Source of the DNA: Shigella phage Shfl2
DNA: 64,000 nt
Sequence record: HM035025
Strand: one strand, 5' to 3'
How positions within the stretch are numbered: the stretch's first letter is position 1; the number at the start of each line of letters is the position of its first letter. Below the pieces are notes generated by a model. The model searched no databases. It was not told the origin of the DNA and saw only the letters and a list, made by a program, of their open reading frames with translations. Positions 6,190 to 39,502 of the stretch are shown here, one piece after another. The position numbers and the translations under genes are program-made.

Positions 6190-6218
6190 GGGACCTTCGG
6201 GTCCCTTTAGTTGTTTTT
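6190..6218 (+). terminator. Rho-independent terminator after gene 23
   Basis: GGGACC-UUCG-GGUCCC hairpin (6190-6205) followed by T-rich tract. Confidence 0.8.
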
Positions 6219-6222
6219 ATGG

Positions 6223-7547: not shown

Positions 7548-7571
7548 GGGACCTTTCGGTCCCTTTTATTT
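7548..7571. terminator. Bidirectional hairpin terminator between convergent genes 24 and rnlB
   Basis: GGGACC-UUUC-GGUCCC flanked by A-rich (left) and T-rich (right) tracts. Confidence 0.75.
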
Positions 7572-8574
7572 AACTTACCAATTCAATCCAAGCCGGACGA
7601 AGTACATCTTGTACCATTTTAACTAATTCCTTTTTAATCAAAGAAGGATTATCCGCTTGAGTTAGAGTAATACCTTCACGAGAAGTTTCTTCCAAAATAT
7701 CTTGAACAGTTAGTCCCATCACCTTTCCAAAATCTTTTGGACCAATTTCGCCAATTTTAGAAATAACGTTATTTACTCGGTTCAGTGTAACGTAGCAAGC
7801 TAAAATTCCCAGCAATTTATTATCAGCTTCTGACAGCTCAACTTTAGCTTTAATAGGCTTATCAGACTTTTTCTTTTCGCTAAATTTAGAGTTCTTGCAT
7901 TTGATGGCTACACGATTGCCATTAGGCATCCAAGAAGGATAACAAGGTTTCAATACATATCCTTCAGCGGTAAATACTTCACCTTTTGCTTCGGCATTCC
8001 AAACGCATTTATTTGCATCAACTAATCCAGCATGGTCTACTGTAAAATTATAATCCTGGACGACAGAATCTAAATCATTTGGCAATTTAATAAGTTCTTC
8101 AAATTTACCACGACCCAAAAGTGGAGCCATTTTAAATTTGAATGTATTACAGAATGATTCCATCATATAATCATCGACATAAGTCACATCACCACTTTCT
8201 GTAGTAACAATAATGTCAAATACATAAAAATCTTTATCACCATAATCGACATTCTTCTGAATGCCAGGTCCAGCGAATTCGCCGAAGACTTGATAAGATA
8301 CAACTGCCGAAGTTTCCATAATATCTTGTACTGCTTTAATGGAATCAGCGTAATTCTTTAGAATAATTTCATACCCAAAGAAATCTTCAGCAGGAAGAAT
8401 CGGTCCAGTACGTTTAGCACAAGTTGCTTTATCGCGTTCAATAATCAGTGAGAAATTTGTGCCATGAATCTTTTCACGAGCTACCCATTCGCCGCCAGTC
8501 AATCCTAAACTGTAAAGTTTTTCAATGAATTTAGAATTGTAATGATTTTCAAGACTGCTATACTTTTTAAACAT
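7570..8574 (-). CDS. rnlB: RNA ligase 2 (Rnl2)
   Basis: 334 aa, nucleotidyltransferase lysine motif context ([10 protein letters not shown]), same length and position as T4 rnlB. Confidence 0.9.
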
Positions 8575-21677: not shown

Positions 21678-21680
21678 CAA

Positions 21681-21711
21681 TGGGGACCTTTCGGTCCCCA
21701 TATTTTTATTT
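21681..21711. terminator. Bidirectional terminator between gene 54 and convergent early ORF
   Basis: UGGGGACC-UUUC-GGUCCCCA hairpin followed by T-rich tract. Confidence 0.75.
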
Positions 21712-21996
21712 ACGGAATGAAATAAAAGCAGCAACTGAAGCAACTAAACTGTCTTCAATATAAACTTCAATTTTTACCGGAGCTTCTGACTCAAATTTAC
21801 CTGTTACTACACCTTGGAAAATGCTTTCAGTCTGCTCTGGCTTTGAAAAATTTTCAGAAGGAAAAATTCCGAACTTTTTATCTGTTCCAAAAATTTTGAT
21901 AAATTCATCATAAACTGCTTCATTAAAAGCATTATCAGCAGGAATAACGCCTTCAACTACAAGTTCTTGACCTAAAAAGCGCAAAGAAGATTTCAT
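21706..21996 (-). CDS. Hypothetical early protein
   Basis: 96 aa, driven by strong early promoter and GAGG Shine-Dalgarno. Confidence 0.55.
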   Translation of the reverse strand: MKSSLRFLGQELVVEGVIPADNAFNEAVYDEFIKIFGTDKKFGIFPSENFSKPEQTESIFQGVVTGKFESEAPVKIEVYIEDSLVASVAAFISFRK

Positions 21997-22004
21997 TTTG
22001 TGTT

Positions 22005-22057
22005 CCTCATGTTATGTCAGTAAAATTACTATAACACAACACGAGGGACTTGTAAAC
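22005..22057 (-). repeat. 53-bp early promoter-leader cassette, copy A (50/53 identical to 37859-37911)
   Basis: cctcatgttatgtcagtaa...caacacgagggacttgtaaac present at both loci. Confidence 0.8.
22028..22057 (-). promoter_or_regulatory. Early promoter (GTTTAC -35, extended -10)
   Basis: Minus strand GTTTAC - 18 nt - TGtTATAGT; the -35 hexamer overlaps the alt stop codon. Confidence 0.65.
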
Positions 22058-24114
22058 TACATCTTGAACTTTTTAGACATTCCGTTGATGTTAACCAAAG
22101 AAGCCAAGATTTGAGAAACTTCGTTTTCCTCTTCTTTTGATTCTTCTACAAGGAATTGATTAAACCCAGCCATTGGACGAACTTCACCAGTTTCCATCAG
22201 ATGATCGCCATCATATACCGATTCTTCTAATTGTTCAGAAGGAGGAACGATTGTGCCTTCGATTAGATACTTGTTATAAGCAGTTTCTTTCATCATGTAC
22301 GTGCTTACTTTATTAATCTTCAACAAAATTCCACGCGGTAAAATAACTTCAGCTTCTGATGGAAATCCTGATAAATGACCTGGAACGATAACTTTGATTC
22401 GCTCAGCCCCTTTAATTACCATACCTACGCTAGTTTCAGCATCTTCATTAGCATATGCAGAATGACTACCCATATGCATTAAATCTTCAGCATCAACGGA
22501 ACCTTCTCCTTCACCAGAAAATACTGCACCGGAATCATCTAGAGCCATATAGTTTTTACCATGCTCACCGAAGATATTTGGTTTAAGCGATGTTGATACG
22601 AAGTTCTTGAAATAGAACATTTTATTTTCAATATTATGACGTAAAGTTTTAAAGGTAACTTCTTGTCCACGGTAAAGTGTAGTTCCCGGAGGAAGAACTG
22701 ATCCTTTGGCGAATGCAGAATCCAGCGTCTCGATGTGTTTAATAGCTCGTTCCATGTATTCTTCACGGGTAGAATCTGGTTTACCCAAGAGGAACGAGTT
22801 CATTTCAACATATGAATCTGCACAATAATCTTCAATTACATCAGACTCAGCCTGAGTCAGTCCTTTTGGAGTTACTTCGGTGCTTGCGTATTCATATGCC
22901 TGAGCAGCAGATTCATTAATCAATTTATAAATGCCATTCATGACAAATTGAATAATAGCTACCTTTTCGTCTGGCGTGGCTTTAGAACCTTTAACTAAAT
23001 CATTGATAATTTTCTTAATAATATCAAAGCTATTAGAAATATTAATGTCAGCGAGATCGCTCAAAATTTTATCGGTTTTATAATCAAAGAATTCTTTATT
23101 CTTTAAATATTCTTGAGAACCTTGATATGTTATATCGCTCTGCAGCTTGATAGATGGATCACGTAAACGTGCATGGGCCAATGCAATATGATTTCGGAAG
23201 CTTTCTAGTTCATAATCATTAGATTTAAAACGAGAAGCACTCCTCATACCACCGATAGCTCCTTTGCCGAAGTTTGAACCAATCTGAATAACGCCAGAGT
23301 TCATTGGTCCTTCTGCTTTATATACCGGAACTTTAGATTCAAACTCTTGATATTTCTTAGCGGCGAAGCTATCACCCTGAAGTGAAGCATCGACAGTAGA
23401 ATATTGAGCTTGTGCTGCTAATCGACGACTAATTTTAGTTTTCTGAATAACAGCTTGATCCGTGCGCTTATCATTTTCTAGAGCAATAGAAGCGGCAACA
23501 GCAACAGCTTTAGGAACAGCATTACCTGTTTTAACGTCTACATAAACATCACCAACCTTTGATTCAACTTTTGTGAATAACTCAGTTGAAATAGGAGGTA
23601 CACCTGGAATGTCTTCTAAATTAGCATTTTTACGATAAACCATAATATATGCATACTTTTTATCATAGTCCCAGATTTCCTTTAAAAGAACATATCGACC
23701 TGCTCCTTTAGTACGTACTAAACGGTCAGCAATAACTTGCATTTGACGAGCAGCGCCATTTGTTTTACTTTTTAGTACGCGGAATAGGCATGCGTCAATT
23801 TTATACTGTTTCATTGTTTGAAGAGCAGTATCAAAAACCGCATTAATGACACCAATTGGATTTCCACCCAAGTTTTTAAGTTTAACTAATGATAGTTTCT
23901 CATTAACACCTATCATTACGATATGCATCATTTTATCGCCTGGCTTAACGTTTTTATTTGTATCACCGCCAGAGGTGTATGTACAAAATCTAAATCCAGG
24001 AAGCACACTTTCTTCACCGGCTTGAATAGCAAAAATTTGAGGTATTTTATGCTTAGGATTTAAGTTAACAACCGGCGCCGAAGCGCCGTCAAATAATTCT
24101 GTAATAAGTTCCAT
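22057..24114 (-). CDS. alt: Alt-like ADP-ribosyltransferase (virion-packaged), paralog 1
   Basis: 685 aa; shares N-terminal region and C-terminal YDGDHLMETGEV motif with adjacent paralog; YRGQ...FVSTSL...EAEVILPRG arrangement. Confidence 0.8.
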   Translation of the reverse strand: MELITELFDGASAPVVNLNPKHKIPQIFAIQAGEESVLPGFRFCTYTSGGDTNKNVKPGDKMMHIVMIGVNEKLSLVKLKNLGGNPIGVINAVFDTALQTMKQYKIDACLFRVLKSKTNGAARQMQVIADRLVRTKGAGRYVLLKEIWDYDKKYAYIMVYRKNANLEDIPGVPPISTELFTKVESKVGDVYVDVKTGNAVPKAVAVAASIALENDKRTDQAVIQKTKISRRLAAQAQYSTVDASLQGDSFAAKKYQEFESKVPVYKAEGPMNSGVIQIGSNFGKGAIGGMRSASRFKSNDYELESFRNHIALAHARLRDPSIKLQSDITYQGSQEYLKNKEFFDYKTDKILSDLADINISNSFDIIKKIINDLVKGSKATPDEKVAIIQFVMNGIYKLINESAAQAYEYASTEVTPKGLTQAESDVIEDYCADSYVEMNSFLLGKPDSTREEYMERAIKHIETLDSAFAKGSVLPPGTTLYRGQEVTFKTLRHNIENKMFYFKNFVSTSLKPNIFGEHGKNYMALDDSGAVFSGEGEGSVDAEDLMHMGSHSAYANEDAETSVGMVIKGAERIKVIVPGHLSGFPSEAEVILPRGILLKINKVSTYMMKETAYNKYLIEGTIVPPSEQLEESVYDGDHLMETGEVRPMAGFNQFLVEESKEEENEVSQILASLVNINGMSKKFKM

Positions 24115-24117
24115 GAT

Positions 24118-26214
24118 TTATCCTTGAACGAACTTGTAAGGCATGTTTGCAATATCTATGCAAGACGCAATAATTCCAAGAGATGATTCTACTTTTTGTT
24201 TAACATTTGATGAAACAAATGATGCAAAGTCAACTCTGTCTTCTATTTCAATATCACCTGTCATTGCAACTACTTCACCAGTTTCCATTAGACGGTCACC
24301 GTCATAAATTACCGATTCGGTGAGTTCTTCGGTGGTCATAACTTCAGCTTGAATGAGTTTTGTATTATTAGACGTGGTTCCGTCATTATTAGAAGCATCA
24401 GTTATTTTATTAACTTTGACCATCAATCCACGTGGTAGAATAACTTCAGCTTCTGTTGCTATTCCGAGACTTCCTGGATATATAACATTAACTTTATGAG
24501 CTCCATCAATTGCCCATCCTATTTGAACTTTAACGTATTCAGGATTTTCTTTATACGCTCTTATTTCGTTTGGATTAATAGTTATTCCTTCTTCATTTTT
24601 ATCAACTGTCAATTCATTACGAGCTTCTGGTTCTAAAAGACCAATACCAGCATGTGTAATTCCAAAACGTCCAAAAATGATAGGAGTTAAAGAAGTAGAT
24701 ACAAAATTTCTGAAATAGAACACTTTATTTTTAACTAGTGCTTCGTATATAGGAGCAGTCATGCTTTGAGCACGATAAACTGTAATGCCTTCTGGTATAC
24801 GGTCACCATTTTCAAAAGCTGAATCTAAGTTATTTATAGCAGATTCAATTTCTTTTTCACTCATTACATCATATCGTTCTGGATTGTAACGACCCAAAAG
24901 AAGATTATTGATGTCAGTATATCCTGAACCACAATACTCTCTAATGCCGCGCTTTTGTGATGGAGTATATTTAGAACCATCACGGGCAATAGTAATATCA
25001 ATCATTGGACCTGCACCAATTCCAGAAAAACTATAAATCATTCGTTTGAGGAATTTAGTTTTTGCTGCGTTCCAGGAATTTTTAGTTATTTCTTCCCAGA
25101 CTTCATCTGGCTGCCCTTTACGAGTTTTATTATGTTTATCAAGCCATTTATCTTTGTATTCTTCAAAGAATTTATTAACAGCTGCTGCGTATTTCTCTAA
25201 ACATTTTATTGAAGTAGTTGGTTCATTTTTAATCGCATTAAGAATTACATCTTTAATTTTTTCAGAAACTTCATTAACCTCACTTTTTGAAAAGAATTTA
25301 TAGTCATAATGAAGTTCATCTGCAGTTCCTTCAGCAATAATTTTTGCTGCTTTAGTTTTAGAAGCTAATGAATTAATTCCAAGCTTCATTTCTTCTGCTT
25401 CGGGAATTAAAGGAGCGGTAGCAGGTTTATTGAAATTAGCTGCGGTAGATTCATACTTCTGGAATAATTCACTTTCAAATCTAGAAGATTCCAATGATTG
25501 ACTTTGCGCAATTGCTCTACGGGAAATTTTAACTTTAACGATTACAGCTTGGTCAGAACGCTTATCATTTTCTTGCGCAATAGATGCTGCAATTGCCTCA
25601 TTTTTAGTTACTTGGGCTCCAGTATCTTTATTGATATAAACATCACCGACTTTCGATTCAACTTTAGTAAAGAGCTCGGTACTAATTTCCGGAACTCCTG
25701 GAATGTCTTCTAGTGATACATTTTTGCGATGTATAAGAATATATGCATACTTTTTATCATAATCCCAGAGTTCCTTAAGAAGGACGTATCTGCCACCTGA
25801 ACGACTACGGATAAGTCTATCAGCAATAACTTGAATTTGTCGAGCTTGACCAGCAGTTTTAGACTTAAGAATACGGAGCATACAGGCATCAATTTTATAC
25901 TGACGCATAGTTTGCATTGCAACAGTAAAAACTGAATTGATATAATTAATTGGGCTTGGACCAAGACCTTTCAATTTAGCAATTGAACCTTTAGCAGTTA
26001 ATGTAAAAGGAACAATATGCATCATTTTATCGCCCATTTTTAAATCGCGATTAGTATCACCTCCAGATGTATAGGTACATAAACGAAAGCCTGGTTGTTC
26101 AATTGCGTCATCAACATGAACTGAAAAAATTTGTGGTATTTTCTTCTTTGGATTTAAGTTTGTAATCGGAAGAGTAGTATCTTCGTCAAATAATTCTGTA
26201 ATGAGTTCCATCAT
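24118..26214 (-). CDS. Alt-like ADP-ribosyltransferase, paralog 2
   Basis: 698 aa, 3 nt upstream of paralog 1; conserved N-terminus (MMELITELFD...), YRAQ...FVSTSL...EAEVILPRG, divergent C-terminal tail. Confidence 0.8.
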   Translation of the reverse strand: MMELITELFDEDTTLPITNLNPKKKIPQIFSVHVDDAIEQPGFRLCTYTSGGDTNRDLKMGDKMMHIVPFTLTAKGSIAKLKGLGPSPINYINSVFTVAMQTMRQYKIDACMLRILKSKTAGQARQIQVIADRLIRSRSGGRYVLLKELWDYDKKYAYILIHRKNVSLEDIPGVPEISTELFTKVESKVGDVYINKDTGAQVTKNEAIAASIAQENDKRSDQAVIVKVKISRRAIAQSQSLESSRFESELFQKYESTAANFNKPATAPLIPEAEEMKLGINSLASKTKAAKIIAEGTADELHYDYKFFSKSEVNEVSEKIKDVILNAIKNEPTTSIKCLEKYAAAVNKFFEEYKDKWLDKHNKTRKGQPDEVWEEITKNSWNAAKTKFLKRMIYSFSGIGAGPMIDITIARDGSKYTPSQKRGIREYCGSGYTDINNLLLGRYNPERYDVMSEKEIESAINNLDSAFENGDRIPEGITVYRAQSMTAPIYEALVKNKVFYFRNFVSTSLTPIIFGRFGITHAGIGLLEPEARNELTVDKNEEGITINPNEIRAYKENPEYVKVQIGWAIDGAHKVNVIYPGSLGIATEAEVILPRGLMVKVNKITDASNNDGTTSNNTKLIQAEVMTTEELTESVIYDGDRLMETGEVVAMTGDIEIEDRVDFASFVSSNVKQKVESSLGIIASCIDIANMPYKFVQG

Positions 26215-26234: not shown

Positions 26235-26242
26235 TATTTATA
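26235..26242 (-). promoter_or_regulatory. Late promoter (minus strand) upstream of Alt paralog pair
   Basis: Plus tatttata, 20 nt upstream of paralog 2 start. Confidence 0.6.
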
Positions 26243-30657: not shown

Positions 30658-30990
30658 TTATTTTACTACTTTCCAATGCTTCATGTCAAGTTTACCAACT
30701 TTTTTCATCTTCTCAATTAAGCGTTCGGCACGTTGGCGAGCTGTAACATAATACCATTCACCTAATTCATTTTGTTCAATTTTTCCAACGATTACTGTAT
30801 TCAATTCATAAATCCAACCGGTAAAGAAATTATGAACTTGAATTGTAAAGGTGAAATCTGTTCCCATACCTTCTGTTGTTTCTACTTCAATAATATCACC
30901 TTCAACTGCCATTAAGAACCACATAGTTTCATCATATGCACCGTTGAAGCATTTAGTTTTAACCGCAGCGTTCAGATTAATCGTTTTCAT
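30658..30990 (-). CDS. Hypothetical protein
   Basis: 110-aa ORF preceded by early promoter. Confidence 0.55.
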   Translation of the reverse strand: MKTINLNAAVKTKCFNGAYDETMWFLMAVEGDIIEVETTEGMGTDFTFTIQVHNFFTGWIYELNTVIVGKIEQNELGEWYYVTARQRAERLIEKMKKVGKLDMKHWKVVK

Positions 30991-31017
30991 TTTATTCTCC
31001 TTTGTTTGTGTAAGATA

Positions 31018-31047
31018 ATACTATCACAAAGGAGCTATACTGTAAAC
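31018..31047 (-). promoter_or_regulatory. Early promoter (GTTTAC - 18 nt - TGaTAGTAT)
   Basis: Minus-strand match upstream of ORF starting at 30990. Confidence 0.55.
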
Positions 31048-31065
31048 AACTTTATGCAATCTTTG

Positions 31066-31096
31066 GAAAATAAAAAAGGACTCCCGAAGGAGTCCT
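31066..31096 (-). terminator. Rho-independent terminator
   Basis: AGGACUCC-UUCG-GGAGUCCU hairpin followed on minus strand by UUUUUAUUUU. Confidence 0.75.
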
Positions 31097-31100
31097 CAAC

Positions 31101-31277
31101 TTATGCTTTCTGCTTACCAAAACGAGAAGCATCATCTCGAAGAACCGCACGTGCTCGGCGCATGATCTTCTCAACAGTTTGATTGATACGAGAGTTCGAC
31201 CCACGCTTGTAGCCAGCGCGTTTAGAATCACCAACTTTCTTTTCAACTGCTTTCTTTGCTTTAACTTGTTTTGCCAT
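31101..31277 (-). CDS. Small highly basic protein (58 aa)
   Basis: MAKQVKAKKAVEKKVGDSKRAGYKRGSNSRINQ..., Lys/Arg-rich; start chosen at the second in-frame ATG (track ORF extends to 31319). Confidence 0.4.
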   Translation of the reverse strand: MAKQVKAKKAVEKKVGDSKRAGYKRGSNSRINQTVEKIMRRARAVLRDDASRFGKQKA

Positions 31278-34576: not shown

Positions 34577-34588
34577 TAAAGTAAACTG

Positions 34589-37006: not shown

Positions 37007-37356
37007 TTAGAAAGGTCCTGGATGTCTTCTGCGAACTTGTTGAAGGAGTTGTTGATTTGTTTTTCAACCAATCCTGGCTTATGAGCCACCACATCCGCCT
37101 TCTTTGCGTCTTTGCGCAGTTTTTCATTTTCACGCTCAATAGCAGCAATTGCCTCACGATTTTTATTATTCATCGCATCAATATAATTATACTGAATTCG
37201 CAAATTATTTAATGCTAAAGCGTTTTCATTGGCCGTTTTTGTAATTTCTACAACAGACGTTTCTAATCTTTCAATTTTATTTTTTAAAATTAAAGAAGTT
37301 CCGCCCAATGCAATTACAATTAATAGCAAGCCTGCTGTCGTATTACTTAATTGCAT
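37003..37356 (-). CDS. pseT.3: Inner-membrane spanin, Rz equivalent
   Basis: 117 aa, N-terminal TM helix (AGLLLIVIALGGTSLIL) then coiled-coil periplasmic domain. Confidence 0.65.
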   Translation of the reverse strand: MQLSNTTAGLLLIVIALGGTSLILKNKIERLETSVVEITKTANENALALNNLRIQYNYIDAMNNKNREAIAAIERENEKLRKDAKKADVVAHKPGLVEKQINNSFNKFAEDIQDLSK

Positions 37357-37853
37357 AAAGTTTTAATAACCTCTATAATATCGTCTTGAGAAAGACCGTT
37401 AATTAAAATATGATGTTCAGCAGGAGATTTAGAAATTTTAAAGCATGCCTCAACATCTTCTGCCATATCTGATGCGCTACGATTTGGATTACTAATTCCA
37501 AGACGATGTTTTCCCGTCAAAGGATTAACGATGATATAGCATTTACAGTTGTTAATATGAACATTAGGTTGAGTTTGATTAATGAACACATCACAATCAT
37601 ATTTCGCAAGCTGATTTTCTAAAAAGACTTTCATCTCCTCAACTGCATCAGGAAGCATATCACGGGCTTGCTCAAGACGACGATTTCGATATTCTTTAAT
37701 GGTCGTTTTCCGCTTGACTTGCTTAGCTAAATCTTTCTTAAGATCGGTGATATATCCAACTCGACGATTTCCTTTAAATACAGAAATCCCATCTGTAGTA
37801 TCACCGTATGCTTCAACGACCATTTCAGTAGTAATAAGCTGTAAATCCATCAT
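37347..37853 (-). CDS. alc: Alc, inhibitor of host transcription
   Basis: 168 aa, position between spanins and rnlA as in T4. Confidence 0.8.
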   Translation of the reverse strand: MMDLQLITTEMVVEAYGDTTDGISVFKGNRRVGYITDLKKDLAKQVKRKTTIKEYRNRRLEQARDMLPDAVEEMKVFLENQLAKYDCDVFINQTQPNVHINNCKCYIIVNPLTGKHRLGISNPNRSASDMAEDVEACFKISKSPAEHHILINGLSQDDIIEVIKTLCN

Positions 37854-37858
37854 AAAGT

Positions 37859-37911
37859 CCTCATGTTATGTCAGTAAGACTACTGTAACACAACACGAGG
37901 GACTTGTAAAC
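37859..37911 (-). repeat. 53-bp early promoter-leader cassette, copy B
   Basis: 50/53 identical to 22005-22057. Confidence 0.8.
37882..37911 (-). promoter_or_regulatory. Early promoter for alc
   Basis: Minus strand GTTTAC - 18 nt - TGtTACAGT; the -35 hexamer abuts the rnlA stop. Confidence 0.6.
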
Positions 37912-37914
37912 AGC

Positions 37915-39502
<1,588 letters not shown>

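Follow-up and report, generated by a model that had tools for sequence, protein, structure and literature searches.

A predicted hairpin around the early promoters of alc and alt.-3 in Shigella phage Shfl2 may restrict translation of read-through RNA

Translation of the bacteriophage T4 genes e, soc, 49 and I-TevI depends on where their transcripts begin: on transcripts coming from upstream, the ribosome-binding site (RBS) is sequestered, and a promoter located in the hairpin itself gives rise to translatable RNA (Uzan & Miller 2010, PMC3014915). A different kind of compact regulatory unit, the PeSL cassette, carries an early promoter with the motif TTTACW-N17-TAYWAT and has been described as a substrate of recombination and exchange (Arbiol 2010, PMC2839356; Comeau 2014, PMC4122927). 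Here, we describe a cassette that is found twice in a stretch of 64,000 nucleotides from Shigella phage Shfl2 (record HM035025; the whole stretch is referred to below as the window), once upstream of alc and once upstream of a homologue of T4 alt.-3. We propose that each copy is an early promoter nested in a hairpin that would block translation of alt.-3 or alc on read-through RNA and that the alc cassette was copied to alt.-3, a reading to which we assign a probability of ca. 0.6. The repeat as such is ordinary and shared with T4; what deserves attention is the conserved hairpin and the evidence for copying to alt.-3.

The two copies lie on the minus strand at positions 22004-22057 (copy A) and 37858-37911 (copy B) and are identical at 51 of 54 positions. 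Direct comparison bore out both the places and the figure given in a preliminary description of this DNA (50/53 over 22005-22057), and a set of 100 dinucleotide-preserving shuffles contained no match to the cassette with three or fewer mismatches. The identical block starts with the G of GTTTAC and ends directly after GAGGA, with unrelated flanks. Each copy occupies an entire intergenic gap, which consists of a -35 element GTTTAC, 17 bp, a TGn-TA(T/C)AGT -10 element and a leader with the Shine-Dalgarno (SD) sequence GAGGA. Copy A serves the alt.-3 homologue, an open reading frame (ORF) of 96 amino acids (aa) at 21706-21996, and copy B serves alc, the gene of an inhibitor of host transcription, at 37347-37853 (the start codon annotated in T4 is the second ATG, position 37850 in the window); both genes, given correctly in the preliminary description as a 96-aa ORF and alc, are on the minus strand. 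The same strand holds the genes that read into the cassettes. An Alt-like paralogue of 685 aa (22057-24114) ends in the TAG codon 22059-22057, whose last base is the first G of the copy A -35 element (22052-22057), so that copy A spans the distance from this stop codon to the SD. The gene rnlA (gene 63; 37915-39039) ends in TAA (37917-37915), 3 nucleotides (nt) before the copy B -35 element (37906-37911). The observation that the -35 elements overlap or abut upstream stop codons thus stands, as does the assignment of rnlA; the gene upstream of copy A, which had been taken for alt, is a second full-length alt paralogue.

Both copies carry the marks of early σ70 promoters. The extended -10 elements, TGT TATAGT in copy A (22028-22036, minus strand) and TGT TACAGT in copy B (37882-37890, minus strand), are recognized here as sequence motifs; the resulting patterns TTTACA-17-TATAGT and TTTACA-17-TACAGT match the consensus at 10 and 9 of 12 positions, respectively, and the upstream TG is present in both. 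Sequences further upstream belong to the coding ends of the preceding genes and contain some A-runs (aaaaagttcaag; aaaaaatttatccc) that lie outside the shared block. Judged from the position of the -10 elements, transcription is predicted to start near 22021 (copy A) and 37875 (copy B), which corresponds to ca. 123,064 and 136,300 in T4. The -35 element, the 17-bp spacer, TGn and the -10 element of both copies match the T4 early promoter consensus (UP/-35 GTTTAC/TGn/-10; Hinton 2010, PMC2988021), and the two downstream genes are expressed early in T4, in agreement with the previous assignment of a promoter plus leader. The consensus, however, explains neither the 51/54 identity of the copies nor the complementarity between spacer and leader that is described below. 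Ten sites of the form GTTTAC-N16-18-TAnnnT are present in the window; the next-best pair among them is identical at 34 of 54 positions, with a median of 25/54, and the identity of the cassettes therefore goes far beyond what a promoter consensus accounts for, as had been suggested.

The promoter spacer that follows the -35 element (GUCCCUCGUGUUGUG) is an inverted repeat of the leader (CAUAACAUGAGGAC), a feature that the preliminary description did not include. In copy A, the 5′ arm GUCCCUCGUGUUGUGU (22034-22049) lies within the spacer and is present only in RNA initiated at upstream promoters, and the 3′ arm ACAUAACAUGAGGAAC (22002-22017) holds the SD GAGGA at 22008-22004. In copy B, the 5′ arm AAGUCCCUCGUGUUGUGU (37888-37905), again within the spacer, faces the 3′ arm ACAUAACAUGAGGACUU (37855-37871), which holds GAGGA at 37862-37858; all arms are on the minus strand. 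Read-through RNA is predicted to fold into a main stem of 14-17 bp and an apical stem of 4-5 bp, ca. 20 bp in total. In copy A, the first bases of the extended -10 element end the main stem and the rest is apical. The predicted energies of the read-through folds are -26.5 kcal/mol for copy A (z = -4.96) and -29.0 kcal/mol for copy B (z = -4.50), and none of 200 dinucleotide shuffles was as stable. RNA beginning at the predicted +1 is, with -1.8 (A) and -5.0 (B) kcal/mol and z about 0, essentially unstructured, because the main arms enclose most of the -10 element as well as the expected start site; with a start near 22021, the transcript of the copy A promoter would contain a 3′ arm that has no partner.

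Accessibility of the SD was assessed by opening energies, and the plain unpaired probability was dropped as a measure, being confounded by a weak local 5-bp pairing in the own transcript of copy A. Opening the SD is predicted to cost 11.5 (A) and 7.8 (B) kcal/mol in read-through RNA versus 1.8 and 1.1 kcal/mol in RNA from the nested promoter, and the 4-nt SD core (GAGG or GGAG) is wholly paired to the spacer in both copies. The main stem arms are free of differences between the copies, all three of which map to the -10/apical region. Pairing between spacer and leader helps to explain why the spacer, the -10 element and the leader are conserved jointly as one block. The earlier idea of a shared leader that coordinates translation was thus half right, since the leader supplies only the 3′ arm and the promoter spacer supplies the 5′ arm; folding of the leader in the promoter's own RNA reveals next to no structure, which arises with the spacer in read-through RNA. 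The other role proposed for the leader, in RNA processing, found no support: no indication of a trans-acting or processing signal emerged, and an Rfam scan returned no family at either cassette.

These features suggest the following scheme. A strong σ70-type early promoter would be built into a hairpin, with its spacer as the 5′ arm, most of its -10 element and the start site in the apical part, and the leader, including the SD, as the 3′ arm. RNA arriving from upstream (through the alt paralogue or rnlA) would contain both arms, the SD would be hidden in a helix of ca. 20 bp, and alt.-3 or alc would be translated poorly. RNA from the nested promoter would begin inside the loop, lack the 5′ arm and be translated freely. 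Synthesis of Alc and Alt.-3 would in this way be tied to the brief period, a few minutes long, in which early promoters are active, despite middle and late read-through.

Likely sources of such read-through can be named. In T4, alt.-3 and alc belong to the early RNA/early protein class, alt is late and rnlA is early at the RNA level and late at the protein level (PMC9697503 and its supplement). A late-promoter box, TATAAATA, at 26235-26242 (minus strand), upstream of alt (24118-26214), is a likely source of late read-through RNA reaching copy A, and middle promoters have been mapped upstream of rnlA in T4 (Table 1, PMC2988021). A terminator scan called none between the upstream genes and the cassettes. 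We also observed that a sequence upstream of rnlA, CCACAtggagTGTGG, which resembles the spacer-hairpin motif of alt.-3 promoters outside Tequatrovirus, lies at ca. 39066-39093 (minus strand) between TACTAT and a MotA-box-like ATGCTTC; judged by these motifs, the region could be an unlisted middle promoter.

The upstream regions of alc were gathered from other T4 relatives, including unclassified contigs from IMG/VR. The layout seen in the window, that is, a stop codon, GTTTAC, the 5′ arm, the -10 element in the loop and a 3′ arm ending in the SD, is present in about a dozen other lineages; it was found in Dhakavirus (VR5), LQ5, Gelderlandvirus, Karamvirus, Moonvirus, Jiaodavirus, Winklervirus and Bragavirus, as well as in the unclassified contigs L123, L129 and the L133-L137 group. 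The arms are lineage-specific and complementary to each other (TCTCCTCATG/CATGAGGAGA, TCTCCATTTGG/CCAAATGGAGA, CCGTTTGG/CCAAACGG, ATCCTCATCAG/CTGATGAGGAT and AACCTCTCATTTT/AAAATGAGAGGTT). At positions 13-17 of the 5′ side, counted from the -35 element, per-sequence folds show pairs that alternate between A-U, G-C, U-A and C-G among lineages, and three or four of the four SD-core bases are paired with the spacer in all 16 sequences that are not Mosigvirus-like. When arms were swapped in silico, chimeras across arm groups had a mean energy of -12.6 kcal/mol versus -20.2 kcal/mol for native hairpins. In the Tequatrovirus copies that were read, the 3′ arm is invariant, and changes in the 5′ arm include G16A (G-U to A-U; L132, L140 and L161) and C15T (C-G to U-G; L140), both of which preserve pairing. 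The G-U pairs in the Tequatrovirus stem and the variants that keep pairing speak for RNA of this strand and against DNA.

RNAalifold applied to a MAFFT alignment of the alc cassettes reported no consensus structure, since the arms of different lineages do not line up with each other; covariation was therefore read from folds of single sequences, tabulated by distance from the -35 element, and from the arm-swap comparison. A covariance model built on Karam-, Moon- and Gelderlandvirus cassettes retrieved all alc cassettes, both Tequatrovirus copies and a further promoter of the window at 31047; its alignment was not used for counting pairs, since it mis-registered the Tequatrovirus arms and matched reverse strands as well. 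An IMG/VR scan with the 14-mer ACATAACATGAGGA gave mostly chance matches and only ca. 10 true cassettes.

Several observations weigh against the proposed gate. The basal 5 bp of the stem (CUCC/GGAG) are bound to be complementary to any SD, which leaves only the inner stem informative for covariation. Two 5′-arm variants break pairing, G16T in T6 (a U-U mismatch) and C12A in L139. RB69-like phages (NHEP10, L130) have a different type of promoter at alc, without an SD-sequestering stem, and the gate must therefore be dispensable. Other GTTTAC sites of the window, at 34586, 30655 and 45984 (minus strand), have strong hairpins that enclose or include the -10 element (-19.3, -20.1 and -17.1 kcal/mol; z from -3.2 to -5.0 with mononucleotide shuffles) and leave the SD uncovered, so that promoter-spanning hairpins may partly serve something besides gating. 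The GenBank records of T4 annotate no promoter feature at either site, and a search of the literature, with older T4 papers outside its reach, yielded no T4 transcription-start map and no 5′-end or translation data for either site. Finally, there is no established biological reason for silencing alc or alt.-3 later in infection. Further exceptions at alc are an Acinetobacter phage (L168), whose hairpin misses the SD, and an Aeromonas phage, which lacks the arrangement altogether.

A blastn search with the 54-mer placed the cassette at 995 sites in 498 GenBank phage records (ca. two per genome), the listed records being T4 relatives, mostly Tequatrovirus; T4 itself holds both copies, 53/54 identical. 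The two loci have different histories. Upstream regions of alt.-3 sampled outside Tequatrovirus (L111-L115 and L144-L160) all contain another promoter type, whereas alc keeps the SD-sequestering one; the spacers of these outgroup alt.-3 promoters carry a small covarying hairpin of their own (GCACaaggaaGTGC, CCACaaggatGTGG, ACACAtggaTGTGT) and not an anti-SD arm. Since the SD-sequestering cassette stands upstream of alt.-3 in Tequatrovirus only and every outgroup alt.-3 that was sampled has a promoter of another kind, alc is most likely the ancestral site of the cassette and alt.-3 the derived one. The edges of the identical block, GTTTACAAG on the left and ACATGAGGA on the right, are motifs common to alc and outgroup alt.-3 cassettes, and past GAGGA, T4 alt.-3 retains sequence of the alt.-3 type (AACACAAAATG). 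The alt.-3 copy is thus most likely a conversion tract from alc, as far as direction and mechanism can be read from these edges: the alc cassette would have replaced the original alt.-3 promoter in an ancestor of Tequatrovirus by short-homology recombination or gene conversion between the shared GTTTACAAG and ACATGAGGA motifs, and the promoter, the pairing and the SD together would have held both copies nearly unchanged since then.

The gene conversion or transferable unit invoked in the preliminary description is supported by comparison, in that the other lineages sampled differ at alt.-3 and not at alc, but no sign was found that conversion continues within the genus. Both copies were read in seven genomes; the two loci share one consensus, every variant occurs at only one locus, and ongoing conversion was rejected on this ground. 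The pattern looks like one old duplication that is maintained by selection. Movement of early cassettes on a wider scale is suggested by Dhakavirus VR5, where the 28 nt directly preceding the ATG are identical in the alc (L131) and alt.-3 (L144) leaders, although the spacers differ. The VR5 alc cassette occurs at four places in VR5, has its best match in JS98 and IME08 at alt.-3 and matches at 88% a site upstream of an unrelated gene of Karamvirus PG7 (L170), where an anti-SD stretch again follows the -35 element. It therefore seems that early cassettes have been moved from locus to locus and between genera.

Such shuffling is also what one would expect if the cassette had no function in RNA and were a recent copy of a strong early promoter with its RBS, of the PeSL family, in which the complementarity of spacer and leader is incidental. 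T4-type early promoter-leaders do form a family with GTTTAC, TGn-TAnnAT, CTTAC and (A)TGAGGA motifs, the VR5, JS98/IME08 and Karamvirus matches attest to exchange among loci, and exchange of this kind is reported for PeSL (PMC2839356, PMC4122927). We nevertheless consider this explanation unlikely, though it fares best among the alternatives. The alc hairpin is kept in about a dozen lineages with arms that differ and co-vary, swapping arms costs ca. 7.6 kcal/mol on average and, in the sampled Tequatrovirus, the 3′ arm does not change and most changes in the 5′ arm keep pairing. The covariation of the arms contradicts both chance and mere recency of the copy.

The hairpin could instead belong to the upstream gene (the alt paralogue or rnlA) as a terminator or 3′-end stabilizer, comparable to the terminator half of PeSL. 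One record, OL960581, annotates the copy A hairpin as a rho-independent terminator (an automated WebGeSTer call), stem-loops of RB49 PeSL do terminate (PMC2839356), and CUUUAU comes after copy B. This view is improbable, somewhat more so than that of an incidental copy, since there is no U-tract after copy A (tail ACACAAAAUG) or after the alc hairpins of other lineages, and the terminator scan calls neither site (the tail of copy B is CUUUAUGAUG). Moreover, the 3′ arm falls on the SD of the downstream gene in every case, which termination does not need, and a canonical terminator is already present after alt.-3.

It is very unlikely that the helix is a site for RNase III or another nuclease that separates the cistrons and inactivates the downstream one. 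The stem, 16-20 bp long with one bulge, does fall within the size range of RNase III substrates, and inactivation of alc or alt.-3 on read-through RNA would have the same outcome as gating. The stems are, however, only 9-11 bp long in VR5, L129, KP17 and the L133-L137 group, too short for such cleavage, and the lack of an Rfam match at the cassettes also speaks against it. Equally little can be said for an inverted repeat that acts in DNA, either as a cruciform or as the operator of a factor that controls early promoters, for example at early shut-off. The repeat does bracket the -10 element, several other early promoters and the Acinetobacter phage have -10 repeats that do not involve the SD, and the shut-off of early promoters is understood only in part (PMC3014915, PMC2988021). 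Yet the G-U pairs of the stem are mismatches in DNA (C-A on the opposite strand), loops of 14-18 nt disfavor cruciforms, the 3′ arm tracks the SD, and a conserved protein site is argued against by arms that differ completely between lineages. Given the -10 hairpins at 34586, 30655 and 45984, which stop short of the SD, an effect in DNA may still contribute. Translational coupling, in which ribosomes finishing the upstream gene would open the hairpin and read-through translation of alc or alt.-3 would depend on upstream translation, agrees with an upstream stop codon that is always 0-4 nt from the -35 element and so brings terminating ribosomes near the 5′ arm, but it is hardly probable either, because the SD-pairing bases begin 11-17 nt past the first base of that codon, at the limit of, or outside, the RNA that a terminating ribosome should unwind, and the tight spacing is also expected from genome compaction alone.

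The promoter at 31047 (30990-31100, minus strand) combines a full PeSL layout, that is, the terminator GAGGACTCCTTCGGGAGTCCTTTTTT, an AT-rich stretch and GTTTAC, with an SD-sequestering hairpin of its own (CUCCUUUGUG/CAAACAAAGGAG). The 110-aa ORF downstream (30658-30990) is, by its position, probably the homologue of T4 30.8, and the alc covariance model also matches the equivalent place in T4 (L001, 18266-18311). A sub-threshold Rfam match to Atu_C8 at 31062-31145 overlaps the GAGGACTCCTTCGGGAGTCCTTTTTT terminator, which is probably its cause. Together with the cassettes, this promoter allows one to suggest, tentatively and with slightly less than even odds, a general class of early-promoter-embedded gates in T4-type phages. 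In such gates, the spacer would be the anti-SD strand, proteins like Alc would be made only from their own promoter and turned off at early shut-down, and the arrangement would spread by cassette conversion, as at alt.-3; the class would include alc in about a dozen lineages, promoter 31047 and PG7_108 of Karamvirus PG7.

The window is Tequatrovirus DNA close to T4; over 1.5 kb, it is 99.3% identical to Shigella phage SH-2 and Citrobacter phage CrRp10, and its gene order is collinear with that of T4 (54, alt.-3, alt, 30 ... pseT, alc, rnlA). It contains two tandem full-length genes for Alt-like ADP-ribosyltransferases on the minus strand, 22057-24114 and 24118-26214, the latter being the closer relative of T4 alt (70% identity). 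T4 alt.-1 and alt.-2 are remnants of the former (95-98% identity), and since only these fragments remain, T4 must have an internal deletion of ca. 1.7 kb adjoining copy A. The alt.-3 unit is closed by a bidirectional intrinsic terminator at 21680-21701, between alt.-3 and gene 54, which belongs to a hairpin family (GGGACCTTTCGGTCCC) repeated at 6190-6220 and 7548-7578. At the start codons served by the two cassettes, there are 5-codon mini-ORFs, AUG AGG AAC ACA AAA UGA (21994-22010) and AUG AGG ACU UUA UGA (37849-37864), both on the minus strand, which start at the AUG of cAUGAGGA and whose UGA overlaps the true start (AUGA). Other lineages do not have them, and for this reason they were rejected as functional elements and are probably incidental.

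If the proposed gate operates, it would provide a simple cis-acting cause for the fact that synthesis of some T4 early proteins stops at early shut-off despite middle and late transcription from upstream, a question of timing that is still only partly explained. It would also mean that selection at the level of RNA can act on a promoter spacer, a region commonly regarded as free sequence. The pair of cassettes offers a concrete, datable case of a regulatory unit most likely copied between genes in T4-type phages, and structural coupling of promoter and RBS is relevant when alc or alt.-3 is re-engineered, when T4 early promoters are moved and when hairpins are annotated as terminators. The gene alt.-3 is uncharacterized and dispensable, and mutants with a C-terminal extension of its product let T4 escape the CmdTAC defense system (PMC11618068); the timing or level of alt.-3 expression may therefore matter for evasion of defense.

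In the literature that was searched, with older T4 work outside reach, no early-promoter gate or hairpin is described at alc or alt.-3. Like PeSL cassettes (PMC2839356, PMC4122927), the cassettes described here combine an early promoter, an SD and a start codon in a compact intergenic unit of which several loci hold related copies. Short-homology recombination and exchange, to which PeSL have been linked, would also fit the difference in promoter type at alt.-3 between Tequatrovirus and the other sampled lineages. The cassettes of alc and alt.-3 differ in that a PeSL has a terminator stem-loop upstream of an AT-rich region and promoter, whereas no upstream stem-loop or terminator is called here and the stop codon touches the -35 element; the stem-loop here encloses the -10 element and ends in the SD; and PeSL exchanges move ORFs, whereas replacement at alt.-3 seems confined to the promoter core. 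Hairpins of free-standing homing endonuclease genes (Aeh1 mobE and T4 segB; cited in PMC3014915) likewise hide the RBS on read-through RNA, but they limit expression of a selfish endonuclease and are not built around an early promoter. The closest likeness is to e, soc, 49 and I-TevI. As in those genes, where the helix may hold the SD or the AUG, the SD lies in a stable predicted helix on RNA initiated upstream, the promoter sits inside the structure so that its own transcript, from the start site predicted here, would lack the 5′ strand, and the structure is kept in T4 relatives, here at alc in about a dozen lineages. The gates of e, soc, 49 and I-TevI have been demonstrated experimentally, whereas the one at alc and alt.-3 is known from sequence and a predicted fold. 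Theirs nest late promoters (TATAAATA) and delay translation until late in infection; neither of our cassettes contains TATAAATA, and the nested promoter is of the early σ70 type, and the predicted logic is therefore reversed, with translation confined to the early period. Because the nested promoter is early and not late, we regard the cassettes of alc and alt.-3 as a variant of the e/soc/49/I-TevI type rather than as a plain member of it.

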